A DNA stretch of 59,307 nt from positions 1-59,307 of the forward strand of contig JBBDWJ010000365.1 in NCBI GenBank assembly GCA_040902925.1, written 5' to 3'. The position numbers and the translations under genes are program-made. This stretch comes from Bryobacterales bacterium. GTDB taxonomy: Bacteria > Acidobacteriota > Terriglobia > Bryobacterales > UBA6623. Every line of letters starts with the position of its first letter. Within the stretch, counting starts at the first letter, position 1. Below the pieces are notes generated by a model. It searched no databases, was not told where the DNA came from, and worked only from the letters and a program-made list of their open reading frames with translations. Shown in pieces: positions 221 to 50,071 of this stretch.

Positions 221-2062
221 ATGGCCTATCCCGCACATTGGGAGCAACTCAAGGAGCGGGCTGCGTCGCTGCCTGCCTCGCCCGGGGTGTATCTCTACAA
301 AGACGGCGCCGGCCGCATCATCTACGTCGGCAAGGCCAAGAGCTTGCGCGACCGCGTGCGCAGCTACTTTCTCGAGGAAAAATTCGCCGACGCCAAAACC
401 GGCAGCTTGCTTTCCGAGGCGCGCGATGTCGAGTACATCGCCGTCGCCAACGAGAAAGAAGCGCTGGCGCTGGAAAACAATCTCATCAAGCAGCGCAAGC
501 CGCGCTTCAATATTCTGCTGCGCGACGACAAGACCTATCCCTACATCAAGCTGACAAAGGAGCGCTTCCCGCGTGTTTACGTTACGCGGCGCCTCAAAAA
601 AGACGGCTCGACGTACTTCGGGCCGTATTTTCCGGCCAACCTGGCCCATCGGCTGGTGAACTTCATCCATCGCTATTTCAAGATTCCCTCGTGCCGGGTC
701 GATCTGACGCGTTTTCACCCGCGGCCGTGCCTCGAATATCACATCCACCGCTGCTGGGGTCCTTGCGTGGAAGGCCTGACGACCGACGAGAACTACGAGG
801 GCGCCGTGCAGGACGTGCGTAGGTTTCTGGACGGCCGGCAGAACGAGCTCGTCAAAGATTTGCGGTCGCGAATGCAGGCGGCATCCGACCGCACCGAATT
901 CGAGCAGGCAGCCGCGATGCGCGATTTGATCTCGACCGTCGAAGAGATGCAAGAGCGGCAGAGAATTGCCGCCGCCGAAGGCCGCGATGTCGATATTTAT
1001 GGCTTTCACGCCGAACCGCCGCTGGTTGCCGCGAACCTGTTTCACGTTCGCAACGGTAGAGTCGTCGACCGCCGCGAGTTTTTTTGGGAGGACCTCCATC
1101 AGTTCGAGCCTTCGGAGTTTCTCTCGTCGCTGATCAAGCAGATTTACCTCGACCGCGAATACGTGCCGTCGCTGATCCACGTGCCGGCCGAGTTCGAGGA
1201 TCAGGCTCTGCTCGAAGAGTTTCTGAGCGAAAAGCGCGGCCGCAAAGTTGAGATCACGATTCCGCAGCGCGGCTCGAAAAAGGCCATGCTCGACCTGGTC
1301 GTGCAAAACGCGCGCCACGCCTTCGAGCAACGATTCCGGATTCTTAAGCCGACGTCCAAACAAGTCATGGACGCGCTGACGGACGCCCTGAACCTGCCCG
1401 AATCGCCCGAGCGCATCGAGTGCTTCGATATCTCCCACATTCAAGGCAGCGACACGGTAGCTTCGATGGTGGTGTGGGAGAAGGGCAGGATGAAGAAAGC
1501 CGACTACCGCAAGTTCATCATCCGCGACGTGGCCGGCGTGGACGACTTCGCGTCGATGCGCGAAGCAGTTACCCGGCGCTATCGCCGCGTGCAGGAGGAG
1601 AAGCAGCCGATGCCGGGCCTGGTGCTTGTAGATGGGGGCATCGGGCAGCTCCATTCCGCCGCGGCCGCGCTGGAAGCGTTGGGCATCATCAATCAGCCGC
1701 TGGCCGCGATCGCCAAGCGCGAAGAAACAATTTTCGTTTTCGGGCAAGAAGACGAGCCGGTGCAGCTCGACCGCTTCTCCCCCATCCTGCACCTGGTGCA
1801 GCTCATTCGCGACGAAGCCCACCGTTTCGCAGTCAGCTTCCACCGCCAGCGCCGCGGAGCGCGGCAATTGACCACGGCGCTGCTCGAAATTCCGGGCATC
1901 GGCGAGAAGACAGCCCGCAAGCTGCTCAAGACCTTTGGAAGCATCGAGCAACTGCGACAAACCAACCTGGAAGATCTGGCCGCGGTAGTCAATCGAGCGC
2001 AAGCCGAACGGATTCAGGAATTTCTTACCCGACAACAGCAGGTGCCAGGTGTCAGGTGTTAG
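221..2062 (+). CDS. uvrC: Excinuclease ABC subunit C (UvrC)
   Basis: 613-aa ORF. N-terminal GIY-YIG motif (GVYLYKD..IIYVGKAKSLRDRVRSYF) and C-terminal helix-hairpin-helix (IPGIGEKTARKLLKTFGS). The last ~8 codons (QQQVPGVRC) read into a heptamer repeat array. Confidence 0.95.
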   Translation: MAYPAHWEQLKERAASLPASPGVYLYKDGAGRIIYVGKAKSLRDRVRSYFLEEKFADAKTGSLLSEARDVEYIAVANEKEALALENNLIKQRKPRFNILLRDDKTYPYIKLTKERFPRVYVTRRLKKDGSTYFGPYFPANLAHRLVNFIHRYFKIPSCRVDLTRFHPRPCLEYHIHRCWGPCVEGLTTDENYEGAVQDVRRFLDGRQNELVKDLRSRMQAASDRTEFEQAAAMRDLISTVEEMQERQRIAAAEGRDVDIYGFHAEPPLVAANLFHVRNGRVVDRREFFWEDLHQFEPSEFLSSLIKQIYLDREYVPSLIHVPAEFEDQALLEEFLSEKRGRKVEITIPQRGSKKAMLDLVVQNARHAFEQRFRILKPTSKQVMDALTDALNLPESPERIECFDISHIQGSDTVASMVVWEKGRMKKADYRKFIIRDVAGVDDFASMREAVTRRYRRVQEEKQPMPGLVLVDGGIGQLHSAAAALEALGIINQPLAAIAKREETIFVFGQEDEPVQLDRFSPILHLVQLIRDEAHRFAVSFHRQRRGARQLTTALLEIPGIGEKTARKLLKTFGSIEQLRQTNLEDLAAVVNRAQAERIQEFLTRQQQVPGVRC

Positions 2063-2224: not shown

Positions 2225-2484
2225 GCCTTACTCCCCCGACCCCAGGACTGCCGGCACAAGCATCATCAGTAGGTTTCCCTAGTCCGTCTTCTGCGCAACG
2301 GGACCTACCTGTGGCCGTTTGCCCCTCAAAACATGGGCAACGCCGGTCAATTTCGACTCCTTGCGAAGCGGCGATAGTACGCCGCGTAAGGTCTACCTCC
2401 TATTTGTGCGTCCCAATCCCGCTGTGAGGCGAAAACCCGATTACCCCGCGAGTACTACCTGTACTAAGTTGAAACCTGATAACC

Positions 2485-5400
2485 GTGAACCCCACGCTCC
2501 AAATCGCCCACGGCGAGGGGCGGCGCATCGACATCTGCTTTACGAGCAGTTCCTCGGATCGGCGAGCCGCGTCGACCCATCTGGATTTTTCTCTTGGCCT
2601 GAAAGAGCAGGACGGCCTGCGCTGGTATTGGGAGGACTATCTAGAACACCCCAACCGCACGGCGCGCCAGATGGCTGCTGAGGTCGAAAGACAACTGCAG
2701 CAACTCGGCGAGCGGCTCTTCCAACGCGTCTTCAACGGCAGTGACGCGCAACAGATCTGGGCCGATGTTGCGCCCGCGTTGGCCGACACGGTGATCGAGA
2801 TTGTCGTCTCCGGCGATTCCTCGGCGACGATTCCCTGGGAGCTGTTGAGGGATCCGCTGACCGGCGCGACTCTCTCGACCAAATCGCATTCGTTCGTTCG
2901 CCGCCTTGCTTCAAAAGCTGGCAGCCACGTGGCGGATGCGAATGGGCCCGATGCGAACGAGCCCGGCGGGGGGCCGCTCCGCATTTTGTTGGTGAGCTGC
3001 CAGCCGCCGGGACCAGCCGATCCCCCCTTTCGCTCGGCCGCCCGGTTGCTCGTCAACAGCCTTGCAAGTCAGCCGCATTCGTCCCTGGTTCTCGAAGTGC
3101 TGCGCCCGCCGACCTTCGGCCAGCTCACGAGCATCTTGCTGGAAGCCGAGGCGCTCGGCGAGCCCTATCATGTGCTGCACTTCGACGGGCACGCCGTCGC
3201 CGCCGACATTGAGTTGCATGGCATTCCGGCCGAGCTTCCCCAAGGCGCGGGGCAAGTGCCTTGTACGGGAACGCTGCCCGGTCTCCACGGCTACATGGTT
3301 TTCGACTATCCCACGCGCGAACAAACCGTTCAGCTCGTCGATGGGCGCTCGATGGGCGAGCTTCTTGCGGAAGCCTGCGTTCCGACCCTGGTGCTGAATG
3401 CCTGCCAGCCTTCGCGAACGAAGGACGCGGCGGCGACGGCGGGCGGCAATGTCCGCAAGACCACGGCGCTGGCTTTTGAGTCTCTGGCGCGCGACGTTCA
3501 ATCGCAGGGCGTCAACGCCGTCGTACAGCTTCCGTATCACCTGGGGCCGGTTGCGTCGGCGCAATGGCTGGAACAGATCTACCTCGCTTTGGCGAAGGGG
3601 GATTCGGTTTCCGAGGCCGCAACCGCTGGGCGCCGCCGCCTTCAACAAGACGAGCGGCTTCAGATCAGCTACGGGCCGGTGCGCCGCGAGGATTGGCCAG
3701 CCGCGGTGGTCCACGAATACCAACCACTGCCTCTGGTGCGCAGACCTCCCGCCGAGCCGCGGCCGTCCGAGGACGACGAAGAGCCGTCGTCATCCCCCGA
3801 GGTCAACGCATCTCCGGCGGGTAAGCCAGGCGACGAGCTGCTCGATCCCGTGCTGCCTCCCCGCCCGGCGACCGGTTTCCTCGGCCGCGACGATACGATT
3901 CTGGCGATCGAGCGTGCGCTATCCGCGAAGCCACTGGTGTTGCTGCACGGCGAAGTGGGCGCCGGCAAGACAACCACCGCGGCGGAGTTTGCCCGCTGGT
4001 ACGCAGCAACGGGAGGCGTCGAAGGGCCTGTCCTTTACACGTCGTTTGAGCACTACCACCCGCTCAGCTCGCTTCTCGATCAACTGGGGACCGTGTTCCG
4101 GGCTTCGATGGAAGCGGCCGGAATCCAATGGCGGTCGATGTCGCAGGAAGACCGGCGGCAGGCGGCGCTGCAAGTGCTCGAGCAAATTCCCGTTCTGTGG
4201 ATCTGGGACTCGGTTGATGGCCTCAGTGAAAGCGGCGCGGCGTCGCCGGAATGGACTCTGGAGGAGCAACAGAAGGTCGCCGAGTTCCTGCGCCAGGCGA
4301 CGGAAACGCAGGCCAAATTTCTGCTGACCTCTCGCGGGCTGCTCCACGATTGGCTGGGTCCGTTGGCGGTGCGTATCCCGCTCGGCCCGCTGCCGTTGTG
4401 GGACGGCCTGCAACTCACGCGGGTGCTGGTCGAGCAGAAGGGTTGTTGGCCGCCTGATATCGACAGTTGGCGGCCGTTGCTCGAATTTGCAGCCGGCAAC
4501 CCGCTTACGATTCAGGCGCTGGTGACCGAGTCGCTGCGAAAGGGGCTCCGCGCGCCCGCGCAGTTCGAAGAGTTCGTGCGCGAAGTTGCCGCGCAGCCGG
4601 GTGTGCTCGCGGCGGGGGACGCCGGCTCCAGCCCGCCCGCGAATCTGGGATCTTCGCTGAGTTATCTTTTGCGCAAGACCTTCGACGAAGACGAGCGCTC
4701 GCTGCTGGCTCTGCTTCACCTGTTCCGCGGCTCCGTAAATGTTGAGTTACTGGAAAGCATGAGGGCGCAGCCGGAGGTGTGGAGCCCCAAGGACCTGACG
4801 CAGGGCGCGACACGCCGCCAGGTTCGTCCCTTCCCGCAGGCGCCGCCAGCGGCGATTCTCGATCGTGCGGCGTCTTACGGGCTGCTGCGGCGGATTGGCG
4901 ATGGCGCTTACTCGATTCACTCCGCGCTCGACCGGGCTTCGCTGCAAATTTTTGCCGAACACTTCCCGGCGGCAAAGAAACCTCGGGTCTGGAACCAAAT
5001 GGCCGACCGCGCGGCCGCCGTCGCCGCAGGCGCTCGCGCGGCCGACGATTCCCATGGCGAAACCGCTGGCCCTCCTCGGGGTCCAGCCGGCGCGGTCGTT
5101 GGAGCGCTAACAGGACTGGGCGAACACGGCAGCTTGACACCCTTCGGTCAGCACGCCCCGCCCGAGATGGGGCCCAACCTACGCGCCAGGTATGCGTACG
5201 TGCAGGCCCTCAGCCGCTTCGGAGCCGAGCGCTTCCGCCGCGTTCGCGACGGGTCCTTCGAAGCCGTCACCGAATTAGCCGCTCAGGAGCCCAACCTGCG
5301 CCACGCTTGCCGGATGGCCGGCGACGAGCAATGGTGGGGACCCGCTGCCGGAATCGCCGAGGGACTCGGCACACTCTATGAAACCGACGGACGGCTCAGC

Positions 5401-6390
5401 GAGTGGGAAGGCATGGTCGAAGGGCTCTGTGCGTTGTGCACCGATGGTTCGGGGACTACGGCCAAGTCCGGGCGCGAGCGGCTGTGGCGCACCATCACCG
5501 AGCAGAACGTGAAAATCGCGCGGCAGCGCGAGCATCTGCCCCGGGCCGAGCACCTGCAACGCCTTTGCGTCGATTGGGACCGCCGCCAGGTTGAGCCGCT
5601 ATACGACGCTGCCGCGGAAGCACCCGATCCGGCAAATGCCGGGAAGGTCCGCACGCTCGCCGAGTCGCTGTTCCACCTGAGCGGAATCCTTCGCGAGGAG
5701 GGCACGCCGGCGATCACGGTGGAGGAAGAAGCCATCGAATTGCGCGAGCGGCTGGGCGAAAAGCAACAGGCTTCGATGTGGGCGTTCGAGCTGGGCGGGA
5801 TCTACATGGAAACGCCCGCCGTGCGCAATCTGGCCCAAGCCGAGCGATGGTTGAAGCGCAGCCTCGAGCTGATCCGCGACGATGACCGCGCCGCCAAGGC
5901 GGAGTGCCTGGCTGCTCTCGGCCGCGCCGCCTGGGAGCGTTTTAATGAGGCCCGCAAGGGAAACTCCCCTGAGGCCGAACTGCGCCGCCATCTCAGCACC
6001 GACCGTCAGTACTATCAAACCGCCCTGGAACACGACCTGCCAGCGGACTGGGCCAAGCTCGCCAGCCACAACCAGCAGCTCGGCCACGTTTCCTACTCCT
6101 TGGGAGACATCGACCGCGCGCTGCCGCACTACCGCGAGTCGATCCGCTGCGACGAGCTGCACGGCAACACCTTCGGCGCCGCGCACACGCGGTTCAATCT
6201 CGCGATCGCGCTGCGCGATGTTGACCGCCTCGCCGAGGCCCGCAAGTTCGCGCGCGCCGCGCAGGAGGAGTTTGAGGATTTGGGTAGCCCCGCCAAAGGC
6301 ATGCTCGAACGCTGCGAGAAACTGATCGCGAATATCGAAGAGCGGCTGAGGGTGAAGCGGCGCGAGCGGGGCGTGTTGAACGGCGGATAA
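2485..6390 (+). CDS. CHAT (caspase-like protease) - NB-ARC/STAND P-loop NTPase - winged helix - TPR multidomain protein
   Basis: 1301-aa ORF. CHAT-type motifs: IPWELL, LRILLVSC, His motif HVLHFDGHAV (His codon 3190-3192), Cys motif LVLNACQPS (Cys codon 3403-3405). Walker A GEVGAGKTT (3949-3975), Walker B-like VLWIWDSVD, TSR motif FLLTSRG, GxP motif AAGNPLTIQAL. WH-like segment LLALLHLFRGS..LDRAASYGLLRRIGDGAYSIHSAL. The C-terminal ~400 aa are helical TPR-like repeats (e.g. LGHVSYSLGDIDRALPHYRESI, NLAIALRDVDRLAEARKFARAA). Confidence 0.85.
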   Translation: MNPTLQIAHGEGRRIDICFTSSSSDRRAASTHLDFSLGLKEQDGLRWYWEDYLEHPNRTARQMAAEVERQLQQLGERLFQRVFNGSDAQQIWADVAPALADTVIEIVVSGDSSATIPWELLRDPLTGATLSTKSHSFVRRLASKAGSHVADANGPDANEPGGGPLRILLVSCQPPGPADPPFRSAARLLVNSLASQPHSSLVLEVLRPPTFGQLTSILLEAEALGEPYHVLHFDGHAVAADIELHGIPAELPQGAGQVPCTGTLPGLHGYMVFDYPTREQTVQLVDGRSMGELLAEACVPTLVLNACQPSRTKDAAATAGGNVRKTTALAFESLARDVQSQGVNAVVQLPYHLGPVASAQWLEQIYLALAKGDSVSEAATAGRRRLQQDERLQISYGPVRREDWPAAVVHEYQPLPLVRRPPAEPRPSEDDEEPSSSPEVNASPAGKPGDELLDPVLPPRPATGFLGRDDTILAIERALSAKPLVLLHGEVGAGKTTTAAEFARWYAATGGVEGPVLYTSFEHYHPLSSLLDQLGTVFRASMEAAGIQWRSMSQEDRRQAALQVLEQIPVLWIWDSVDGLSESGAASPEWTLEEQQKVAEFLRQATETQAKFLLTSRGLLHDWLGPLAVRIPLGPLPLWDGLQLTRVLVEQKGCWPPDIDSWRPLLEFAAGNPLTIQALVTESLRKGLRAPAQFEEFVREVAAQPGVLAAGDAGSSPPANLGSSLSYLLRKTFDEDERSLLALLHLFRGSVNVELLESMRAQPEVWSPKDLTQGATRRQVRPFPQAPPAAILDRAASYGLLRRIGDGAYSIHSALDRASLQIFAEHFPAAKKPRVWNQMADRAAAVAAGARAADDSHGETAGPPRGPAGAVVGALTGLGEHGSLTPFGQHAPPEMGPNLRARYAYVQALSRFGAERFRRVRDGSFEAVTELAAQEPNLRHACRMAGDEQWWGPAAGIAEGLGTLYETDGRLSEWEGMVEGLCALCTDGSGTTAKSGRERLWRTITEQNVKIARQREHLPRAEHLQRLCVDWDRRQVEPLYDAAAEAPDPANAGKVRTLAESLFHLSGILREEGTPAITVEEEAIELRERLGEKQQASMWAFELGGIYMETPAVRNLAQAERWLKRSLELIRDDDRAAKAECLAALGRAAWERFNEARKGNSPEAELRRHLSTDRQYYQTALEHDLPADWAKLASHNQQLGHVSYSLGDIDRALPHYRESIRCDELHGNTFGAAHTRFNLAIALRDVDRLAEARKFARAAQEEFEDLGSPAKGMLERCEKLIANIEERLRVKRRERGVLNGG

Positions 6391-6418: not shown

Positions 6419-6829
6419 TTATCGGAAGCCGCCCCGGCGCTCCGCTACTTCTGCAAGGATTTCATCGTGAGTCAGTAGCTTGCCGCCTTTTGCCTCGTAC
6501 TCTTCGGCTAGCTCGCGTAGCTTTTCTGCCGCCATCACAACGGCAGTAGCGCGGGCGCGGACTTCGTTTTTGAGCTCTGCCTTCAAGCTCTCATCCAGAG
6601 ATTCATCCATAAGGCTGTGGAGTGCACGGCACAGGTTGTTCACTAGGTGCCGGACGTCGCGCTGCGTATAGTTGAATCTTGCTGATTTAAGATCCTGCCG
6701 GATTCCTTCAACCGAGGCGTTGCCCTCGTGCTTGGAGAGAACCTGTAGCAAGGCGTCGAATAGATCCAGATTGCCATCTATTGCACGATCCATTACGTTA
6801 TTATCCCACCCTGAAACGCGGAGTATCAT
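6419..6829 (-). CDS. Hypothetical all-helical 136-aa protein
   Basis: The ORF is visibly more AT-rich than its neighbours. Its ATG overlaps the stop of the upstream lplT-aas fusion gene (ATGA, 6826-6829); an alternative ATG lies at 6793. I recognise no domain. The C-terminus is KLLTHDEILAEVAERRGGFR. Confidence 0.5.
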   Translation of the reverse strand: MILRVSGWDNNVMDRAIDGNLDLFDALLQVLSKHEGNASVEGIRQDLKSARFNYTQRDVRHLVNNLCRALHSLMDESLDESLKAELKNEVRARATAVVMAAEKLRELAEEYEAKGGKLLTHDEILAEVAERRGGFR

Positions 6830-9800
6830 CTCGTCATCAGAGATGGTCCGTAGTTCGCCGCCATGTGACGCAACTTCTTTAGATCAAGTTTACCGCTGCC
6901 AAGAATCGGGATCTCATCGATGCAGCGAACGTTTTCCCGGCGTGGCACCCACAGCTTGGGCAACTCGCTCGCGGCGAGGCGCTTCCACAGTTCGTCAGAC
7001 GAAAAATCCGCTGAGCTGTAGAAGACAACCAGTTGTTCGCCTTTGCGGTCGTCGGGTATCGCCGTCACCGCGCACGGCGCGCCATTCAAGGCTTCGGTGG
7101 CTATCTCTTCCACGCGAATGTGCGGCACCATTTCGCCGCCGATCTTGCTGAACCGCGCCAGGCGGTCGGTGATGCGCACGAAGCCGTCTTCGTCGACCGT
7201 TGCGATGTCGCCAGTGATGTACCAGCCATCGCGAACGGCCTCGCTGGTTTTTTCCGGCTGACCGAGGTACCCCATCATGCGGTTGGGGCCTTTGACCAGC
7301 AGCATCCCTTCGCGGTTCGCGGGAAGGGCCTCGCTGCTTTCCAAACTCGCATCGAAATCTACGACGGCTTCGGGATCCACCACCTTCACTGCGACTCCGG
7401 GCAGCGGATGGCCCACGCTGCCTTCCTTCCGGCCGCTCTGCCGGATTCGCCCATCGACCACGTCGGGACGGCTCACGGAAATCACCGGGGCCATCTCGGT
7501 CGCGCCATAACCTTCCATCAACTCGATGCCGTACTTGTCGCGAAACTCGCGCGCCAAAGGCTGGCGCAGTTTTTCCGCGCCCACCAGCGCCAGCCGCAGC
7601 GTCGAGAACTGCTCGGCCGTACACTTGCGCACGTAAGCCGCGTAGAAAGTCGGCGTCGCCATCATCAGCGTGGCCCGATGGCGGGCAACTACCTCGCCGA
7701 TCGTTTTCGCGTCCATCGGATTAGCGTGATAGCAAGCTCCCACGCCCGTAGTCAGCGGTAGCCACAACGTCGCTGTGAATCCGAACGAATGGAAAAACGG
7801 CAGCACGCCCATAAAGCGGTCGCCCTTCTCTAAAGAAAAAAGCTGCCGCATCGCCTCCAGGTTCGAGATGACGTTGTGGTGCGAGAGCATGACCCCTTTG
7901 GGCTGCCCGGTGCTGCCGCTCGAAAAGATCACCGTCGCCAGAGACCGCGAATCGCCAGCGCCGCGATGGATAGCTGTGAGGGCCGGCGCCGGCAGAAGAA
8001 AAGCCGCTGCAGCGCTGGACGCCTTCTCAAACACGGTGATCTCGCGGAGCATGTCCTCCAAGAAAACCATGCCCTGCATTTCCGCAATGCCCGCCTTCTT
8101 TACAAACAGACGCGAGGTTAGGATCGTTCGGATGGAACACTGCGCGACCGCCGACTCCATCGCCTCGCGCCCGGCGGTGAAGTTCAGATTGACCGGTATC
8201 TTGCCGGCCAGTAGGGTCGAGACGTTGGCCAGCGCGCCGCCGACCGATGCCGGCAACAGCAGCCCGATCATCTTTTCGCCCTGGCACATCGAGCGGATCT
8301 TTCGCGCCACGATCAGGCTACAGGTCAGCGCCTGCCCATACGTCAGTTGCTTGCCAGTCGAGTCCGCCATCGCCAACGAACGCCAGTTATGCTTCGCCGC
8401 GCGGACGAACTGCAGGTGCAGCAAATCGTCGGGCTGCCGGCGATGGTCCGCCGCCTCCGCGCCAAGCTCCAGCACAGCCTGGCGTACTTCGCGCGCGCTC
8501 GTCGAGGAAGGCAAAGGCGATCCAAACAGCACCGTCACCCGGTTCGGCACGCCGCGCAGGCGTTTCCAAAAGGAGCGTCCCCGGGCGAAGCTGAACAGGC
8601 TGCCCCACACGCCGTCGAGGTAAACAGGAATGATCGGCACATCGAGCCCGGCAACGATTCTCTCCAGCCCGCGCTTGAACGGCAGCAGGTTGCCGGTGCG
8701 GCTGATCTCTCCCTCGGGAAAAATACACACCACGTGTCCCTCGTGAAGTTCTTTACGTGCGCGTTCGAGCGACTCCATCACGTCGGAGCGGCTGCCGGCG
8801 GCTACCGGAATGGCGTGCATGCGCCGCAGAATCGTGTTCAAGCCGCGCTTCTCGAAATACGGCCGGAAAACCATGAAACGAATCAGACGTTGAACACAGG
8901 CGCCAACCAGAAAGCCATCCACGTAGGAGACATGATTCGCCACCAGCAGCGCCGGGCCGCGCGAGGGGATGTTCTCGCGGCCCACAATCTGAATGCGATA
9001 GAGCGTGTGCGTCGCCAGCCAAAGAACGAAGCGGGCAAGATACTCGGGGACAGTCTTGAGAACGTACAGCGTCGAGACCAGCGTCAGCATGCCCAGAATG
9101 CCGATGGCCTGCGCGGCGCCCAGGCCGGCCCAATCGTGCAGCACCCAGCAGAGCGCGGCGGCCAACAACATGCCGGCCGTGTTGAGGAAATTATTGGCGG
9201 CGAAGATCCGGCCGCGCTCGCGCTCCGGGCTGCGCGCCTGCAAGAACGACTGCAGCGGGACGATGAAAAAGCCGCCCGCAAGTCCCAACAGAATCAAAGC
9301 AGCCATTGCCGGCGCAAAGGTTTCGACCTGCGAGATCCACAAGCACGAAACGCCCATGCCGAACGCCCCCAGCGGCGCCAGACCCAGCTCCACCTTGTCA
9401 CCCGACCAGCGGCCGGCGATCATGCTGCCCACGCCGATGCCTAGAGCGATGCTCGTGACGAGCAGACTCGTGCTCAAATCGCCCGCGCCGATGACGCTCT
9501 TGCCGAACAGCAGCACGCTGATCTGCAGCGCCGCGCCCAGGAACCAGAAATAGGAAACGCCGAGGACGCACAACCACAACGGCCTGTCGCCTCGCACGAG
9601 CCGCAAACCGTCGGAAACCTCCGCCCAGGGATTCAGTCGGAACGGCTTCCGCGCCCCCGACGGCGGTACCCGCATGATGCGGAAGCTCGTCAGCAGCCCG
9701 GCAACGGCGACCGCGACAAGAACCAGCCCCAGCCGCCACGTTGCGCCGCCAGACGCCGCGAAAAGCAGCCCGCCGGCCGACGTCCCCAAAATGATCGCCA

Positions 9801-10257
9801 GAAACGTGGTCATCGAGAGCATCCCGTTGCCGCGTGAAAGATCGCGCTCGGGCAGCATCTCGGGGATGATGCCGTACTTCGCCGGGCTAAAGAACGCCGA
9901 CTGCAGGGCCATCAGAAACAGCACCGCGAGCATCGCGGGGAAGCTTTGCCACACGAACGCGGCGAGCGCCAAACTCATCGCTACGATTTCGAGGGCCGAA
10001 GTCGCGATGAGCACGCTGCGCTTGCTGCATACATCGGCGAGGTGCCCGGCGTATCCGGAAAAAAGAAAAAACGGCAGCACGAACACCGCCTGCGCCAGCG
10101 AGGCATAAGTGCTGCCCTGCTCGATGCTCAGCGCCGCGTTCACCGCGACCAGGGAAACGGCCATCTTGTAGAGGTTGTCGTTGAGCGCGCCCAGAAACTG
10201 CGCCCACACGAAAGGTTGAAAACCGCGGATGCGAAACAGGTCTTTATAGTTGCCCAT
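6826..10257 (-). CDS. Fused lysophospholipid transporter (MFS, LplT-like) / acyltransferase (PlsC-like) / acyl-ACP synthetase (Aas-like AMP-binding)
   Basis: 1143-aa ORF. The N-terminal ~400 aa are polytopic and MFS-like. Central HX4D acyltransferase motif (ANHVSYVDG). C-terminal adenylate-forming motif (IFSSGSTGQPKGVMLSH), then GYGATE and a late GKLDLKKL. Confidence 0.9.
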   Translation of the reverse strand: MGNYKDLFRIRGFQPFVWAQFLGALNDNLYKMAVSLVAVNAALSIEQGSTYASLAQAVFVLPFFLFSGYAGHLADVCSKRSVLIATSALEIVAMSLALAAFVWQSFPAMLAVLFLMALQSAFFSPAKYGIIPEMLPERDLSRGNGMLSMTTFLAIILGTSAGGLLFAASGGATWRLGLVLVAVAVAGLLTSFRIMRVPPSGARKPFRLNPWAEVSDGLRLVRGDRPLWLCVLGVSYFWFLGAALQISVLLFGKSVIGAGDLSTSLLVTSIALGIGVGSMIAGRWSGDKVELGLAPLGAFGMGVSCLWISQVETFAPAMAALILLGLAGGFFIVPLQSFLQARSPERERGRIFAANNFLNTAGMLLAAALCWVLHDWAGLGAAQAIGILGMLTLVSTLYVLKTVPEYLARFVLWLATHTLYRIQIVGRENIPSRGPALLVANHVSYVDGFLVGACVQRLIRFMVFRPYFEKRGLNTILRRMHAIPVAAGSRSDVMESLERARKELHEGHVVCIFPEGEISRTGNLLPFKRGLERIVAGLDVPIIPVYLDGVWGSLFSFARGRSFWKRLRGVPNRVTVLFGSPLPSSTSAREVRQAVLELGAEAADHRRQPDDLLHLQFVRAAKHNWRSLAMADSTGKQLTYGQALTCSLIVARKIRSMCQGEKMIGLLLPASVGGALANVSTLLAGKIPVNLNFTAGREAMESAVAQCSIRTILTSRLFVKKAGIAEMQGMVFLEDMLREITVFEKASSAAAAFLLPAPALTAIHRGAGDSRSLATVIFSSGSTGQPKGVMLSHHNVISNLEAMRQLFSLEKGDRFMGVLPFFHSFGFTATLWLPLTTGVGACYHANPMDAKTIGEVVARHRATLMMATPTFYAAYVRKCTAEQFSTLRLALVGAEKLRQPLAREFRDKYGIELMEGYGATEMAPVISVSRPDVVDGRIRQSGRKEGSVGHPLPGVAVKVVDPEAVVDFDASLESSEALPANREGMLLVKGPNRMMGYLGQPEKTSEAVRDGWYITGDIATVDEDGFVRITDRLARFSKIGGEMVPHIRVEEIATEALNGAPCAVTAIPDDRKGEQLVVFYSSADFSSDELWKRLAASELPKLWVPRRENVRCIDEIPILGSGKLDLKKLRHMAANYGPSLMTR

Positions 10258-13212: not shown

Positions 13213-13644
13213 TCAGGAATCGCGATTCGAATCCCATTTGTGCGGGTGCCGGAGTCCTTCCGGCAAATGGGTTTTTTCGTCTCCGAAAGACTCGGCGAGC
13301 TGTTCCTGGGTGAGGTCCTCGGCGGTCCGCAGATCGGCTCCTCGCAGATCCGTGCGCTCCAGGTCGACGCCAAGCAATCGAGTGCCGACCAGATTCGCCC
13401 CCTTCAGATTCGCGCCGCTCAGGTCGGCCCCATTGAGATTCGCCATGACCAGGTTGGCTTTACTGAGGTTCACGCCGGACAGGTTGGCTACCAACAATTC
13501 CGCGTGGCTCAGGTCGGCCCCGGCAAGGTTCGCGGTCTCCTGGGGGTTCTCGGCCTTCCATCGGTTCCAGGAGTCCACGTCGCTCCGAATCAGCTTCACG
13601 AGTTTTGGGTCTGCCATCGGTTCCTCGAGTCTGGGCGCCGGCAC
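13213..13644 (-). CDS. Pentapeptide repeat protein
   Basis: 143 aa with an uninterrupted A(D/N)LxG-type pentapeptide run ([63 protein letters not shown]). Confidence 0.85.
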
Positions 13645-23400: not shown

Positions 23401-24822
23401 ATGAACGAGCGAGATCGATTCGAAAGTGTTCTGCGCAAGCGCCCTCATCCCCATGTTCCCTTCTTCCAGCGCCCGCAGTGGACGCGCCGCCGTTTCTTCC
23501 GCTCGCTGGCGGCCGGTGTCGGTGGGTACTACCTGGCCGGGCCGTGGAGCCCCGGCCTGTCAAAAGCCGCCGCGGCGGTCGAGACGAAGAACACGGCCAA
23601 GCAGGTGATCTTTCTTTTCCTCGAGGGCGCGCCGAGCGGCGTCGATACGTTCGATCTCAAAGAGACCCCGGGTGTGACGCCGGCTGACTTTGCCCCGGAA
23701 ACCATCAACGGTGTGCGGATTCCCACGGGAATTCTCGGCGGCACGGCGCAGATCTTCGACAAGGTTGCAGTCATCCGTTCGGGTTCGGCCTGGGCGCTGG
23801 CTCATCCGTTGGCGCAAACCTGGTTCCAGATCGGCCGCAACCCGACTTCGCCGCTCGGCAAGTACGCGCCGCACATCGGCAGCGTCGTGGCCATCGAAAA
23901 AGAACCCGAGAGGCGGCCGGACCAGATCTTCCCCGCGTTCATCGCGCTCAATGCCGCAAATGCTCCCGGCTCGGGATATTTGCCGGTCCAGTTCAGCCCG
24001 TTCAAGACGCAGCCCGAAGCAGGAGGGCTGGCCACAACCGAACATGCCGCCGGGGAATCTCGCTTTCGCGAGCGCTGGGATCTGCTGGCGTCGATGGACA
24101 GTGTTCTCCGCGGTCCGCAGTCGCCGCTGGGCAAGGCCGCCACCGGCATGGGTGAGCTCTACGCCAACGCGGAAAGCCTGATGTTCAACCCGCTGGTTGC
24201 CGGCGCATTCGGATTCAGTGAACAAGAGAGCGCCCGCTACGGCGGCAGCGGCTTCGGCAACGCCTGCCTGATCGCGCGCAAAATCGTCGAAGCCGATCAG
24301 GGAACGCGATTCATTCAGGTAACCCTCGGCGGCTGGGACCATCATCAAGGAATTTACGACCGCCAGGAGGTCAACGGACGCGAGGTGGGAAGCAATATCT
24401 ACGCGCAGTGCGGGCAGTTTGATCCGGCGTTCGCGGCCCTGGTCAGCGACCTCGAAGCTTCGGGGCATCTCGACGAAACGCTGATCGTAGTCTCGGGCGA
24501 GTTCGGCCGCACGGTCGGGCCGCTGACCAACGCCAACAATGGCCGCGACCACTATCTGCAGATGTTCTACGTATTCGCGGGCGGCGGCGTAAAGGGCGGC
24601 ACGGTCATCGGCGAGACGGACCCGACGGGCGCGTTCACCATCGATGCGGGCTGGTCACGGTACAGAGACGTGCGTCCGGAAGACGTCGAGGCCACCATTT
24701 ATTCGGCGCTGGGCATCAACTGGACGAAGGTGCGCGACGACGATCCGTTGGGCCGCGGCTTCGAGTACGTACCCAACTCCGATGAAGACGCCTACGGGCC
24801 GGTCGACGAGTTGTGGACATAG
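23401..24822 (+). CDS. DUF1501 domain protein (sulfatase-fold, Tat signal)
   Basis: Twin-arginine N-terminus (WTRRRFFRSLAAGVGG). DUF1501-like motifs (FLFLEGAPSGVDTFDLK, GGWDHH, SGEFGRT..NNGRDH). It lies 18 nt downstream of the DUF1549/1553 gene, the usual pairing. Confidence 0.85.
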   Translation: MNERDRFESVLRKRPHPHVPFFQRPQWTRRRFFRSLAAGVGGYYLAGPWSPGLSKAAAAVETKNTAKQVIFLFLEGAPSGVDTFDLKETPGVTPADFAPETINGVRIPTGILGGTAQIFDKVAVIRSGSAWALAHPLAQTWFQIGRNPTSPLGKYAPHIGSVVAIEKEPERRPDQIFPAFIALNAANAPGSGYLPVQFSPFKTQPEAGGLATTEHAAGESRFRERWDLLASMDSVLRGPQSPLGKAATGMGELYANAESLMFNPLVAGAFGFSEQESARYGGSGFGNACLIARKIVEADQGTRFIQVTLGGWDHHQGIYDRQEVNGREVGSNIYAQCGQFDPAFAALVSDLEASGHLDETLIVVSGEFGRTVGPLTNANNGRDHYLQMFYVFAGGGVKGGTVIGETDPTGAFTIDAGWSRYRDVRPEDVEATIYSALGINWTKVRDDDPLGRGFEYVPNSDEDAYGPVDELWT

Positions 24823-24921
24823 TGAGACAGGCAACCGTGCCTGTCCGGTCGCAACTCACTCAACCAGCCAAGTGGGACAGGCAATCTTGCCTGTCCGGTT
24901 GCAATTCACTCAACCAGCCAA
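24822..24921. repeat. Two tandem 50-bp copies, each carrying a GACAGGCA..TGCCTGTC hairpin (REP-like)
   Basis: Copy 1 is 24822-24871 and copy 2 is 24872-24921 (gtg[a/g]gacaggcaa[ccg/tct]tgcctgtccggt[c/t]gcaa[c/t]tcactcaaccagccaa). The hairpins are at 24826-24845 and 24875-24896. The array starts at the stop codon of the DUF1501 gene. Confidence 0.85.
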
Positions 24922-45799: not shown

Positions 45800-46495
45800 A
45801 GAACAGTCCTTTCGCAGACAAGAATCCCTGGCTTTCGTGATAGAGCAATCCGCAGACCAAAGCAAAGTCCGGTCCGCACGTATTCTAGAATGCTACAACG
45901 TTGCCCAAAACTTCGCAAGCAATGACATTTCTTCGCCAAGGCGATCCGGGCTTATCAATACAGGACTCATAAGTCTCCCGCTGTATGCCGTTGTATGGGA
46001 TATAAGCGACCCCAAGTTGGGACTTGGGACATACAGTACCCTAAAATACATTCTGGAGCCGGAAAACGCCTCAAATGGTCTCTGGCGGGCACTGGTAGTT
46101 CTTGCAAGTGTCACGAAAAATTTACCTGGTCCAAAATAGTACTAGGATGAAATAGTGGCTGGAAGGAACGAAGGTTCTAGTCCCCGGGGCGGTCAAAGCG
46201 CTGTCACCTGCTCCATTCGACACCCTTCGAAAGGTCGTGTTCAGGGCGTCGGCCGCAACCGTGCCGGCGAATCCGCCCGGGGGGTATCGACGCGGAAGGA
46301 AGATCATTCCCCGCCCCAAAGTCGCGAAGAAACAACCCGCGTTTGCGAAAGAGTTTGTGAAAGAATTGGGCTGTGGGCCCGCGACTTCCGCGGCTGCTGC
46401 CGGCGGGCGCCCGACTAAGCCGCCAGGCTAATCGAACGACGGCCCAAACACCCGGCCCGCAACCGTTTCCTGGCGCTCCCGTCTCAACCACGCCC

Positions 46496-49400
46496 ATGAT
46501 CGGACGCACGCTATCCGGCTACGAGATCATCGAGCAGCTTGGCGAGGGGAGCATGGGCGTTGTCTACAAGGCACGCGACCTGCAGCTCGACCGCCTGGTG
46601 GCTTTGAAGGTCCTGCACCGCCGCTTGGCCTCCTCGACCGAATTCGTGGCCCGTTTCGAGCGGGAAGCCAAGGCGATTTCGGCTCTCAACCACCCCAACA
46701 TCGCGACCATCTATGGCGTCGGGCAGGCGGAAGGCCTGCGCTTCCTGATCCTGGAATACCTGCCCGGCGGAACGTTGCGGGCGAAGATCGAAGGGCGCGC
46801 CGACGGCGGCAAACTGCCGGTCTTGGAGGTCGTCGATAGCGCGCTGCAAATCGCCGAGGGACTCGGCCATGCCCACCGGCGCGGCGTCGTGCATCGCGAT
46901 ATCAAGACCGACAACGTGATGCTCAGCGAGGAGGGAGTTCTCAAGGTCACCGACTTCGGTGTAGCAAAAATCGACATGGACCTTGGCCTCACCGAGGAGG
47001 GCAGCTTAGTGGGGACCATGGCCTACATGTCACCCGAGCAGGTGCAGGGCATGCAGGTCGATTTTCGCAGCGACATCTACTCGTTCGGAGTCGTTGTTTA
47101 CGAGCTGGCGACGGGCCAATTGCCGTTCCCGAATTTCCACAGCGCGGCCTTGATCTACGACATCGTCAACTCGCCGCCGCCGCCGATCGCCCAGTTCCGC
47201 CACGACATCCCGGCGTCGCTGGAGCGGATTCTAGGGGCCTGCCTGCGGAAGGAGCCCGAGCAGAGACCCGCCTCCATGGCCGACTTGGCGGGGGCCCTGG
47301 AAGCCTTATGGAACGAGCTGCGCACCGCGACCACGACCAGCCGGCATGACCTCGCCCGCGCCGCCGGCGAGCCGGGCGAACTTGCCGCGGGACGCACCTT
47401 GGGCCACTACCGGCTCGAGAACAAAATCGGCGAGGGAGGCATGGGCGTCGTCTATCGGGCCCGCGATACGCGCCTGGACCGGGCCGTGGCGCTCAAGGTT
47501 CTCAGCGCTCAAGCGGTGGCCAACACGCAGCGCAAGAAACGGTTCGTGCAAGAGGCGAAAGCCGCTTCCGCGCTGAACCATCCCAACATCGTCACCATCC
47601 ACGACATCAGCGAGAGCGGCGGTTTCAACTACATCGCGATGGAATACATCGCGGGCAAGACGTTGGACCGCACCATAACCGGCGGCGGTCTGCCGTTGGC
47701 CGAATCTCTCCGCTATGCCGTGCAGATCGCCGACGCCCTGACGATGGCGCACGGCTCGGGAATCGTGCACCGCGACATCAAGCCCGCCAACGTGATGATC
47801 ACGCCCGATGGGCTGGTGAAGCTGCTCGATTTCGGACTGGCCAAGCTCACCGAGCTCGCCGGCAATCTGTCGGCTTCCGATGCCGCTGAAGGATCGGCCC
47901 AGCCGCCCCATACCGAAGAAGGCGTCATCCTCGGCACCGTGGCGTACATGTCGCCGGAGCAGGCAGAAGGCAAACCGGTCGACGCTCGCTCGGACATCTT
48001 TTCGTTTGGCTCACTGCTGTACGAGATGGTCACGGGGCGGCGGGCTTTCCAGGGCGAATCGAAGATCTCGGTTTTGGCGGCCATCCTGCACCATGACCCG
48101 CCCAGTGTGAGGGAAATCGCCGGCGGAGTGCCCGCCGAAGTGGAGCGCATCATCCTGCGCTGCCTTCGCAAAGACCCCAATCGCCGCGGCCAGCATATGG
48201 CCGACATCAAGGTGGCGCTGCAGGAAGTCCTGGACGAATGGAATTCGACCCGAACCTCGGTGGTGAGCCGCTCGGGGTTGCCGCCGGTAGTCGAGAGCCG
48301 GCCAGGCTGGCGGGGTCCGGCGCTGGGCTTTCTGGCCGGCGCGCTTCTGATTGCGCTTGTGGCATGGCTCTGGCGGCCTCAAAACGACTCCGGCCGAGGC
48401 GCAGCCGGGATTCTCTCGCCCGACGCGGCGGAGTTGATGCTCACGCGCATGACCGGATCAGACACCCTGGGAGTTTCACCCGCCTGGTCTCCCGACGGCG
48501 TGTGGATCTGCTACGCCTCCGGCCGCGCCGGCAACCTCGATCTTTGGAAGCGCCCGCTGCTGGGCGGAGACGAGGTGCAACTGACCTCGACGCCGCAAGC
48601 CGAGACGCAGCCGGCCTGGGCGCCCGACGGGCGGGCGATCGCCTTTTCGGTTCGCGGCCGCGACGGCGGCATCTTCCTGATCCCCGCCGAGGGCGGCCAG
48701 CCCGTCCGTGTCAGTGAATTTGGCGCCAATCCGGCGTGGTCCCCGGATGGGCAAACGCTGGCGTTCGACTGGAACGGCGGGGTGTATCTCGTCCCCTACA
48801 CCGGCGGCGAGCCGCGCCTGCTGACCGCCGGAACCAGCGCCACCCCGCACACGGCTTGGTCGCCCGACGGTTCCCGCGTCGTCTTCTGGAACCGAACGCA
48901 GGGGGACCTGTTGGCGCTGGATATCGGCGGAGGAGAGGCAACGCCGCTGGGGCTGATTCCGGCGGGCGAAGAAGTTGCCGGGCTCGCGTGGTCCGCCGAC
49001 GGGCGCTGGCTGGTGTTCAGCCGCGGCTCATTCGGCGGCAACAAGGATTTGTGGCGTGTGGAGGTTGATCCGGGGTCGGGCAAGCCGCTGGGGCAGCCGG
49101 TGCGACTCACGTTATCCTCCACGGACGACGTGCAGTGCCGCATCTCCGCCGATGGGCTGAAAATCGCGTACACAGCGCAGCAAGTCGAGCGGCACCTGTG
49201 GAGTTTTTCGCTCAACCCCGAAACCGGTCTGGTTCGCGGAGAGCCAGAGCGAATCACAATGGTCGGCGAGCGAAACTACTACCCGGCCGTCTCGCCCGAC
49301 GGGCAGTCGCTGCTATGGACCTCGCAGAACGCCGGGCAGGGCATGATCTATCACAAGCGGCTGGGGGAAGCCGAAGAGCGCAAGCTGACCGGGGAGCGAG

Positions 49401-50071
49401 GCCGGGGCATCCGTGAAGTCGGCGCCAGCTTTGGGCCGGATGGCCAGCAGATCGTCTATTCGTCGACCGTGGGCGGGTCTTACCAGCTTTGGCGCATGCC
49501 TTCGCTCAGCACCGTTGCGCTGCAGTTGACTCGCACGCAGCAGCCGGATCGCGATACGCAAACCGCCTGGTCGCCGGATGGCGCGAAGGTTGCCTTCTAC
49601 TCGAACCGCGGCGGTTCATGGGACATCTGGACGATATCTCCGAGCGGCGGCGCACCGCAGCAGCTCACCAATTGGGAGAGCAACGAGGTTTACCCCGCTT
49701 GGTCGCCGGACTCGACGCAGCTTGCCTTCCTCACCAACCGCGACGGCAACCCCGACCTCTGGGTCCTCGACATGCGCACGAACGAGCCGCGGCCCTATGT
49801 TCAACACCCCGCCGAGGAGGGTCCCGGGGCATGGTCTCCCGACGGCCGCTGGTTCTACTTCAGCTCCAATCGCAGCGGTGAGTTCAACATCTGGAAAATG
49901 CCGGCGGCGGGGGGTGAGCCGCAACAGGTAACCACCTTCGAGGGCAGCGACGTAAATCTGCCGGAAACCGCTCTGTTTACAAAATTCGCAATTACCGCTA
50001 CGCGCCTGATCGTTCCGTTGGAGACCCGTGAAGCGGGCGTCTATGTGCTGGAGACCTTCGCGAAACAGTAG
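46496..50071 (+). CDS. Membrane Ser/Thr protein kinase with two tandem Hanks-type kinase domains and an extracytoplasmic TolB-like PD40 beta-propeller
   Basis: Start at MIGRTLSGYEI. KD1: LGEGSMGVVYKA, VALKV, HRDIKTDNVML, DFGVAK, YMSPEQ. KD2 (from ~47407): IGEGGMGVVYRA, VALKV, HRDIKPANVMI, DFGLAK, YMSPEQ. TM ALGFLAGALLIALVAWLW (~48319-48375). Then at least 8 PD40-like repeats (PAWSPDG, PAWAPDG, TAWSPDG, LAWSADG, PAVSPDG, ...). Confidence 0.9.
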   Translation: MIGRTLSGYEIIEQLGEGSMGVVYKARDLQLDRLVALKVLHRRLASSTEFVARFEREAKAISALNHPNIATIYGVGQAEGLRFLILEYLPGGTLRAKIEGRADGGKLPVLEVVDSALQIAEGLGHAHRRGVVHRDIKTDNVMLSEEGVLKVTDFGVAKIDMDLGLTEEGSLVGTMAYMSPEQVQGMQVDFRSDIYSFGVVVYELATGQLPFPNFHSAALIYDIVNSPPPPIAQFRHDIPASLERILGACLRKEPEQRPASMADLAGALEALWNELRTATTTSRHDLARAAGEPGELAAGRTLGHYRLENKIGEGGMGVVYRARDTRLDRAVALKVLSAQAVANTQRKKRFVQEAKAASALNHPNIVTIHDISESGGFNYIAMEYIAGKTLDRTITGGGLPLAESLRYAVQIADALTMAHGSGIVHRDIKPANVMITPDGLVKLLDFGLAKLTELAGNLSASDAAEGSAQPPHTEEGVILGTVAYMSPEQAEGKPVDARSDIFSFGSLLYEMVTGRRAFQGESKISVLAAILHHDPPSVREIAGGVPAEVERIILRCLRKDPNRRGQHMADIKVALQEVLDEWNSTRTSVVSRSGLPPVVESRPGWRGPALGFLAGALLIALVAWLWRPQNDSGRGAAGILSPDAAELMLTRMTGSDTLGVSPAWSPDGVWICYASGRAGNLDLWKRPLLGGDEVQLTSTPQAETQPAWAPDGRAIAFSVRGRDGGIFLIPAEGGQPVRVSEFGANPAWSPDGQTLAFDWNGGVYLVPYTGGEPRLLTAGTSATPHTAWSPDGSRVVFWNRTQGDLLALDIGGGEATPLGLIPAGEEVAGLAWSADGRWLVFSRGSFGGNKDLWRVEVDPGSGKPLGQPVRLTLSSTDDVQCRISADGLKIAYTAQQVERHLWSFSLNPETGLVRGEPERITMVGERNYYPAVSPDGQSLLWTSQNAGQGMIYHKRLGEAEERKLTGERGRGIREVGASFGPDGQQIVYSSTVGGSYQLWRMPSLSTVALQLTRTQQPDRDTQTAWSPDGAKVAFYSNRGGSWDIWTISPSGGAPQQLTNWESNEVYPAWSPDSTQLAFLTNRDGNPDLWVLDMRTNEPRPYVQHPAEEGPGAWSPDGRWFYFSSNRSGEFNIWKMPAAGGEPQQVTTFEGSDVNLPETALFTKFAITATRLIVPLETREAGVYVLETFAKQ

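Follow-up and report, generated by a model that had tools for sequence, protein, structure and literature searches.

What would a bacterium do with a single gene that joins a caspase-like protease to a STAND nucleotide switch and a repeat sensor, when that gene sits between housekeeping-type neighbours? The question is raised by a stretch of 59,307 nucleotides (nt) from a Bryobacterales bacterium (GenBank assembly GCA_040902925.1, contig JBBDWJ010000365.1), which was analysed at its full length and is termed the window below. One of its genes, at 2485..6390, encodes a protein of 1301 amino acids (aa) with an N-terminal CHAT protease, a central STAND NTPase, and a C-terminal solenoid of TPR-like repeats. 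On balance, and with modest confidence, this gene is read here as a self-contained sensor-effector resembling NLR proteins and the apoptosome, in which a ligand bound by the TPR solenoid would trigger nucleoside triphosphate (NTP)-dependent oligomerisation and thereby the protease, probably in defence against phage or in another conflict. What the analysis itself shows are the folds, the intact and conserved catalytic and NTPase motifs, the lack of a partner gene at the locus, and the horizontal spread and occasional mobile carriage of the family.

A preliminary description of the window, made from the sequence alone, had proposed the same four-part layout and the logic of N-terminal effector, STAND switch, and C-terminal sensor. 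Re-reading of the sequence reproduced the open reading frame (ORF) and every quoted motif at its coordinates, and Pfam, structural models, and invariant motifs bear out the layout. The gene and its parts are as follows.

2485..6390, plus strand: CHAT-STAND-TPR gene, 1301 aa, GTG start, taken from the ORF list; N-terminus common to full-length homologues
2485..2784, plus strand: N-terminal module, aa 1-100, three beta-strands plus helices, with conserved R46-W47-Y48-x-E50
2785..3720, plus strand: CHAT (clan CD, caspase-like) protease domain, aa 101-412, from Pfam, Foldseek, and conservation
3721..3849, plus strand: proline-rich and acidic linker, aa 413-455, predicted disordered
3850..4404, plus strand: STAND nucleotide-binding domain, aa 456-640, from invariant columns, AAA_16/nSTAND3, and Foldseek
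aa 468-469, plus strand: GR(D) motif, R468-D469, invariant in the family
3949-3975, plus strand: Walker A, GEVGAGKTT (K495), with G492, G494, and K495 invariant
4192-4218, plus strand: Walker B, VLWIWDSVD (D575), invariant
4321-4338, plus strand: sensor-1, LLTSRG (R617), invariant
4405..4974, plus strand: helical (ARC-like) domain and winged-helix region, aa 641-830, from the invariant GNP and the model
4495-4503, plus strand: G671-N672-P673 (GxP), invariant, within GNPLTIQAL at 4495-4521
4975..5172, plus strand: alanine- and glycine-rich insertion, aa 831-896, clade-specific and predicted disordered
5173..6369, plus strand: TPR-like alpha-solenoid of 18 helices, aa 897-1295, the presumed sensor, from Pfam TPR_12, profiles, and the model

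The protease is recognised both by sequence and by predicted structure. Pfam places PF12770 (CHAT) at aa 103-398 with 31.4 bits, where the gathering score is 24. Modelled by AlphaFold2 from a 94-sequence alignment, aa 1-470 have a predicted local distance difference test score (pLDDT) of 82 and a predicted template modelling score of 0.86. Foldseek matched this model with probability 1.00 to 8tl0, 8rot, 5fby, 8eey, and 9hma, matches that represent the SAVED-CHAT filament, the anti-sigma factor DdvA, separase, and Csx29 of Craspase; lower in the list come CED-3 (4m9r), then caspase-7 (3h1p) and MALT1. The CHAT fold given to this module in the preliminary description is thereby confirmed at the level of a model, in which aa 101-412 adopt the CHAT/separase/caspase (caspase-hemoglobinase) fold. 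The N-terminal module is modelled with a pLDDT of ~76-98 over ten blocks, and its R46, W47, Y48, and E50 are invariant in 27 sequences.

Proteases of clan CD share an arrangement in which one strand leads into His-Gly and a second strand into Ala-Cys. In the window protein, HFDGHA (aa 232-237) contains H236, encoded by CAC at 3190-3192, and LVLNACQPS (aa 302-310) contains C307, encoded by TGC at 3403-3405. In the model, H236-A237 come after the strand 230-240, and A306-C307 come after the strand 301-306. By motif context, topology, and conservation, H236 and C307 are thus predicted to occupy the canonical dyad positions. A profile of the CHAT region compared with the PDB reached no CHAT protein. 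In the clade of the window protein, His-Ala replaces the usual His-Gly at the dyad histidine. The linker that follows the protease has a pLDDT below 50 at aa 434-450, carries 13 Pro and 10 Asp or Glu among the 48 residues of aa 413-460, and, with a conservation of 0.19-0.58, is the least conserved of the regions shared by the family.

The NTPase is the part in which the preliminary description needs correction. A second model, covering aa 451-1301 (pLDDT 88.7), contains a P-loop alpha/beta domain, a helical domain, a winged-helix-like domain, the disordered insertion, and the TPR-like solenoid; within it, aa 641-830 form a helical bundle and then an alpha/beta element with strands at 750-752, 801-805, and 808-811. 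Its best Foldseek match is PH0952 (6mfv, E 5.8e-10), followed by Apaf-1 (3sfz and 1z6t, with 16-19% identity over ~389 alignment columns), CED-4, PAB2304, and then TPR proteins and ORC/Cdc6, and no structure described as Avs or NACHT occurs among the 50 matches listed. Sequence comparison gives less. The whole-protein profile against the PDB is dominated by TPR matches, and the profile of the NTPase region finds P-loop similarity only. The sub-threshold Pfam matches on the whole protein are limited to AAA_16, nSTAND3, NACHT, and NPHP3_N, and among 14 relatives the counts are 14/14 for AAA_16, 13/14 for nSTAND3, 8/14 for NACHT, and a weak 3/14 for NB-ARC. The NB-ARC label used in the preliminary description is dropped because PF00931 finds no match on the window protein, even at E<=1, and the likeness to Apaf-1 and CED-4 is structural only. 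In addition, Walker B, with the pattern D-[NS]-V-[DE], and sensor-1, with LLTSR, resemble NACHT signatures as much as those of NB-ARC. Judged by its sequence, the NTPase is a lineage of its own, and judged by its model it is a STAND domain with an Apaf-1/CED-4-like fold and not a member of the NB-ARC family.

The C-terminal solenoid is modelled mostly at a pLDDT of 90-98. TPR_12 is above its Pfam threshold, profile matches in the PDB include CTPR, OGT, and LGN, and Foldseek returns LGN/Pins and CTPR. The alanine- and glycine-rich insertion in front of it (pLDDT below 50 at aa 854-886) is found in the window clade only, with an identity of 0.79 inside this clade compared to 0.15-0.18 outside it.

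At the window locus, the CHAT-STAND gene is a single-gene unit. Its neighbours are uvrC (221..2062, plus strand), a 136-aa ORF without a family match, and a gene fusing MFS, acyltransferase, and AMP-binding domains (6826..10257, minus strand), and no latent effector gene adjoins it of the kinds known from protease-effector modules (MBL, alpha/beta-hydrolase, Pepco, gasdermin). The 422-nt region 5′ of the gene holds no plausible small ORF.

The family to which the protein belongs is large. A word-indexed search found 437 relatives. An exhaustive HMMER search with aa 1-1200 as query, run against 1.84 billion representatives of 50% identity clusters, found 3112 at E<=1e-3, with 705 clusters at E<=1e-30. 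Of the best 150, most match query aa ~10-830 (N-terminal module, CHAT, NTPase, and winged helix) as one co-linear piece in their best stretch, and the fusion of CHAT and NTPase is therefore old and stable. Across the family, Walker A, Walker B, sensor-1, and GxP do not vary. H236 is present in 74/78 proteins of an independent, full-length set, and C307, K495, and D575 each in 78/78. Some very long relatives were also encountered, namely P0121 (2696 aa), P0167 (2570 aa), and P0216 (2185 aa), in which the query is matched in 2-5 separate stretches or far from the N-terminus; this suggests tandem duplications or extra modules fused to the CHAT-STAND unit.

Distribution of the family points to a gene that moves. 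Identity is 58-65% over ~1190 aa among members that bear the labels Competibacteraceae, Phycisphaerae, Herpetosiphonaceae, Thermoanaerobaculia, and Terriglobia, and these labels, taken from metagenome-assembled genomes, span Gammaproteobacteria, Planctomycetota, Chloroflexota, and Acidobacteriota. To all of them the window protein, itself acidobacterial, is only ~39% identical, and this pattern, insofar as the labels hold, indicates horizontal transfer. Three relatives, on IMG/VR contigs, are carried on or beside mobile elements. One member of the main clade with an intact dyad (L017, 381-9380) adjoins a large serine recombinase and a Type I restriction-modification system; another homologue (L018) is part of a prophage, where a NinB-domain gene and Bro-N/DUF2213 genes flank it; and a distant member (L019), in or at the edge of a prophage, lies between a recombinase fragment and tail-lysozyme/baseplate genes. 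Toxin-antitoxin modules stand directly beside the gene in L015 and 8-9 kb off in L013 and L003/L004. The gene is also absent where it might be expected. In two Terriglobia (L005 and L006) the pair formed by the fusion gene and a sigma-54 activator is kept and the CHAT gene is missing, and it was not found within 10 kb in any of seven acidobacterial or allied anchor loci. The gene is thus variably present at order or class depth and fixed within its own genus- or family-level clade. The variable presence for which the preliminary description had suggested looking is seen in L005 and L006, and not in the closest relatives, L001 and L002, where the gene is syntenic. Taken together, the evidence at the family level favours a mobile conflict gene.

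How such a protein may work is suggested by Apaf-1/CED-4, SAVED-CHAT filaments, and Avs proteins, which are the analogues behind the ligand, oligomerisation, proximity activation, substrates, and defence phenotype proposed here. At rest, the protein would be a monomer, closed and with nucleotide bound, whose TPR solenoid and NTPase hold the CHAT protease inactive. Binding of a protein ligand to the solenoid would then open the switch; this ligand would most likely be a conserved protein of a phage or other invader and less likely an endogenous stress signal. The STAND module would exchange or bind NTP through K495, D575, and R617 and then oligomerise, and the oligomer would cluster the CHAT domains and activate them by proximity, as occurs for caspase-9 on Apaf-1, CED-3 on CED-4, and SAVED-CHAT filaments. 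Finally, the H236/C307 dyad would cleave targets in trans. These would be host or invader proteins, since no substrate gene is linked at the window locus. The expected outcome would be growth arrest or death of the infected cell.

Several observations weigh against a defence role, most of them concerning the copy in the window. The third-position GC content (GC3) of the gene is 0.765 compared to a window mean of 0.766 +/- 0.040, and its base composition can therefore be called native, as had been stated in the preliminary description. The placement between housekeeping-type neighbours noted there is likewise upheld, and no defence genes were seen across the annotation of the window. The block in which the CHAT-STAND gene converges on the fusion gene, with the sigma-54 activator diverging beyond it, is conserved in L001 and L002, where the flanking genes are ~80% identical to those of the window and the CHAT gene 73-75%. 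Unremarkable contexts are also found in L014 and L016, as in the window, L001, and L002. The window copy thus looks resident, being native in composition, syntenic, and embedded among housekeeping genes. Moreover, the protein is conserved fairly evenly over its length, with no hypervariability in the TPR region. Relatives occur on 3 of 2.9 million viral contigs in IMG/VR. PADLOC v2, which the preliminary description had named as a check, gave no support, as no Avs/AVAST or bNACHT model matched the window protein or 26 relatives, with Avs5-24 and the clade list of 2026 lying outside its library. In part of the family, finally, catalysis seems to be dispensable, a point taken up below. The proposed defence role thus gains from the mobility and conflict signals of the family and loses from the native, syntenic, housekeeping-embedded state of the window copy.

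A further point of the same kind is a conserved element in front of the gene, which, together with its palindrome, is located as follows.

2428..2474, plus strand: clade-conserved 5′ leader of ~47 nt, a candidate operator, promoter, or leader element
2451-2465, plus strand: palindrome AGTAC-N5-GTACT, inside the 5′ leader

Compared with L001, L002, and L020, the region 5′ of the gene has 83-96% nucleotide identity over 52-106 nt, with a nearly invariant core of ~47 nt, while the proteins of these leader-sharing loci (the window included) are only 74-76% identical. The leader motif occurs once in the window, where 0 matches are expected. AGTAC-N5-GTACT is present in only 3/99 homologue loci (L001, L002, and L020), and the leader is absent in the other 96. 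An 8-nt insertion between the leader and the GTG is found in the window alone. A search of the upstream region against Rfam gave no match. This clade-specific leader suggests long-standing regulation by the host.

These observations are best accommodated by the strongest alternative, in which the protein is a domesticated signalling protease. It would work by the same mechanism, but its cue would come from within the cell (stress, nutrient status, or envelope damage, for example), and it would cleave a host regulator, as the CHAT-containing anti-sigma factor DdvA does, instead of acting on phages. The housekeeping neighbourhood and native GC3, the synteny kept in four clade members, the near-invariant, clade-specific 47-nt leader with its palindrome, and the failure of PADLOC to recognise the protein or its relatives all fit this explanation, as does the even conservation of the TPR region, which implies a conserved ligand. 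DdvA is also among the top structural matches, and 391/589 STAND clades are classed as not defence-associated in a 2026 survey in Nature (PMC13581612). However, no regulator or substrate gene is linked to the gene, the cross-phylum identity of 58-65% and the carriage on prophages or an element with a restriction-modification system are hard to square with a housekeeping signalling role for the family, and more distant Acidobacteriota lack the gene at the syntenic position. We therefore regard a domesticated protease as unlikely, while the caution in the preliminary description that a non-defence role is possible stands, given the resident context of the window copy.

A second alternative follows from the loss of the dyad in part of the family. 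Among the 94 closest relatives, H236 is present in 78/94 and C307 in 84/94, and because one or both are lost in 18/94, catalysis is apparently dispensable in some members. The dyad-degenerate lineages (P0008-P0021, P0024/31/41/69, L003, L021, and L023) include the nearest outgroups of the window clade. Position 236 is Tyr, Ser, Cys, or Val in these proteins, and some have also replaced C307 by Ala, Thr, or Ser (it is Ala or Thr in P0011-P0014, P0017, P0019, and P0021), yet all NTPase motifs are kept. Such sister lineages look like naturally occurring pseudo-proteases with an otherwise unchanged architecture. It might accordingly be supposed that the CHAT domain of the window protein is itself non-catalytic or decaying, serving as a scaffold for peptide binding or oligomerisation in a dominant-negative or decoy-type STAND protein, with the dyad of the window clade a residue of its past. 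The His-Ala of the window clade would agree with this, and so would the frequency of inactive caspase domains in some conflict systems, where they are common, with ~70% in vWA effector positions (PMC7159879). Against it, no aligned member of the window clade that covers the domain (P0001-P0005, L001, L002, and L020) has lost H236 or C307, despite 24-27% protein divergence, and the strand-His-Ala and strand-Ala-Cys contexts are intact. A scaffold role is accordingly improbable. The last alternative, a transcription regulator of the MalT/AfsR type, is highly improbable and was rejected, since, although many bacterial STAND-TPR proteins are transcription factors and PF17874 (TPR_MalT) is listed for many homologues, the N-terminus has a protease fold, no MalT, LuxR, or BTAD match was found, and neither Pfam nor NCBIfam detects a DNA-binding domain.

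Elsewhere in the family, neighbouring genes were clustered for 767 ORFs from 90 loci, of which 62 were informative for partner counts. Most of the 90 homologue loci are stand-alone, and recurrent partners are confined to sublineages; the small ORFs beside the homologues in the first eight loci are unrelated to each other. The most frequent partner is a protein of ~305 aa encoded immediately downstream on the same strand in 10/62 informative loci (L041, L042, L049, L051, L065, L078, L084, L085, L092, and L099). Its copies are 49-71% identical and read WFDDLPVLGxLP at the N-terminus and IPYNY..SRY at the C-terminus, and their genes start 6-131 nt downstream of the CHAT-STAND gene, with a slight overlap in two ORF calls. 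No relative was found for it in Pfam, PADLOC, or the PDB, and it is a candidate protease substrate or effector. A protein of ~220 aa is encoded downstream in 5 loci (L030, L032, L059, L062, and L071). In 4-6 loci (among L047, L064, L086, L087, L095, and L098), the gene is preceded by a divergent upstream pair whose products are a MarR-like winged-helix protein (~104 aa) and a likely membrane protein (~226 aa). None of these four partners is encoded anywhere in the window. A small, co-oriented upstream gene resembling EACC1 is not recurrent among the 90 loci and 767 ORFs, and none is present at the window locus.

A wider proposal, which is possible but doubtful, can be built on these partners. 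The family would be an undescribed, widespread lineage of the Avs type whose killing needs no effector and proceeds by proteolysis of a conserved protein of host or phage, the ~305-aa (10/62 loci) and ~220-aa (5 loci) partners would be new classes of death effectors activated by the protease, and in the window clade this system would be fixed in the chromosome and under tight regulation, with a palindromic leader. Whatever the outcome, the CHAT-STAND family is large, mostly stand-alone, and common in soil phyla that are poorly covered by catalogues of defence systems. Because it is large and mostly stand-alone, it could reveal targets of caspase-like proteases that act without a dedicated effector. 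Its dyad-intact, dyad-degenerate, and partner-bearing members are ready-made controls, the latter two kinds being the most useful leads, and the window gene itself is a well-defined candidate with clear mutants (H236A, C307A, and K495A).

The surroundings of the gene contain two further features of note. The preliminary description had seen no mobile-element signatures in the flanks; these are nevertheless not featureless, since a heptad array and a low-GC3 gene are present in addition to the conserved leader. In an array region at 2039-2226, the uvrC stop codon (2060-2062) falls among ~9-10 tandem CAGGTGY heptads, and ~5 inverted heptads make up a partner array at 2187-2226, at a distance of 80-130 nt from the tandem heptads. 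The region folds as a long, imperfect hairpin (free energy -88.6 kcal/mol, z -2.5). All near-matches to the heptad in the 59-kb window, 9/9, fall within 2039-2226, compared to 0.87 expected, and none occurs in 16 homologue loci. The array may be a terminator of uvrC, an element resembling repetitive extragenic palindromes, or a boundary scar. The second feature lies on the other side of the gene.

6419..6829, minus strand: 136-aa ORF, convergent with the CHAT-STAND gene, without a Pfam family

Its ATG overlaps the stop codon of the fusion gene (ATGA), and its GC3 is 0.584 compared to the window mean of 0.766. A homologue with 46% identity is kept at the same position downstream of the CHAT gene in L020, a contig of 5.4 kb, where it is followed by a short AMP-binding-like match only. 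It is absent in L001 and L002, and an unrelated, low-GC3 ORF of 265 aa takes the slot in L002. The 136-aa ORF is a real, fast-evolving gene in a variable slot.

The remainder of the window is ordinary chromosome, with icd, amt, FtsH, TilS, a PSCyt2/PSD1-DUF1501 pair, a sulfatase, and a double Ser/Thr kinase with PD40 repeats. The last of these (46373-50071, plus strand), which has no relation to the CHAT-STAND gene, encodes a large signalling protein of 1232 aa that carries two Ser/Thr protein-kinase domains and, at its C-terminus, a PD40/WD40-like beta-propeller. A coding repeat at 13354-13533 has a 15/30-nt periodicity and is pentapeptide-repeat-like, and the intergenic segment after the DUF1501 gene (24821-24920) is a perfect-register, 50-nt tandem duplication with 90% identity and an internal inverted repeat. 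No CRISPR array or cas gene was found in the window, which has a single tRNA, and no Cas or SAVED domain was found in the protein. The anchor gene of the locus comparison has its best relatives in Acidobacteriota, with 63% identity in Bryobacterales, followed by Terriglobia and Vicinamibacteria.

Compared with known systems, the kind of protein described here, a caspase-like protease fused to STAND, is known and partly characterised, and this CHAT-STAND-TPR family is an uncharacterised branch of it. A catalogue of caspase-STAND fusions is given by Kaur et al. 2020 (PMC7159879). The preliminary description held that the CHAT-NB-ARC-TPR configuration had been catalogued and not characterised; for caspase-like protease-STAND proteins this is now outdated by KrAvs12 of Ktedonobacter racemifer, reported in a 2025 preprint as a caspase-like protease fused to STAND, whose substrate, cut in the presence of a phage tail connector protein, is an EACC1 pore-former encoded upstream; a caspase-like protease that has no effector linked to it still protects Escherichia coli in a Cys-dependent manner (PMC12642450). 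The window protein shares with KrAvs12 and the EACC1-caspase systems an N-terminal caspase-like Cys protease, a STAND domain, a repeat sensor, and proteolysis as the output, and the catalytic Cys of KrAvs12 is required. By description, it differs in that Avs12 depends on its upstream EACC1 substrate and the window gene has no EACC1. KrAvs12, which needs its linked pore-former, is the only fused caspase-like protease-STAND protein studied so far.

With Avs1-4 and later Avs proteins, the window protein has in common an N-terminal effector, a STAND domain, and a C-terminal TPR-like sensor in one chain, as well as horizontal spread, and Avs proteins with TPR sensors are described in the 2026 survey as being activated by binding phage proteins (PMC13581612). 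The effector of the window protein, however, is CHAT rather than a nuclease, SIR2, or trypsin, and its locus lies outside a defence island. The CHAT fold itself is shared with SAVED-CHAT (8tl0), the TPR-CHAT protein Csx29 of Craspase (8eey and 7y85), DdvA (8rot), and separase. Known CHAT proteases are activated by oligomerisation or by binding of a partner, and their triggers differ, being cyclic oligonucleotides for SAVED, the CRISPR effector for Craspase, membrane signalling for DdvA, and securin for separase. Unlike the window protein, none of these four has a STAND NTPase. PH0952 (6mfv), an archaeal STAND protein with a TPR sensor, is the best overall structural match for NTPase and TPR together, but it has no protease effector, and its sequence similarity is confined to the P-loop.

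The Apaf-1/CED-4 apoptosome resembles the window protein in the fold of its NTPase and in the placing of a caspase-type protease on a STAND oligomer, with the two fused here as in bacterial variants. The window protein differs in having a TPR sensor instead of a WD40 beta-propeller, no CARD, and no Pfam NB-ARC match. Bacterial Apaf-1 orthologues whose N-terminus is a caspase-like protease and which have WD40 sensors appear in the survey of 589 STAND clades (PMC13581612). Bacterial STAND proteins with a fused caspase-like protease are the closest prokaryotic analogue of the apoptosome.

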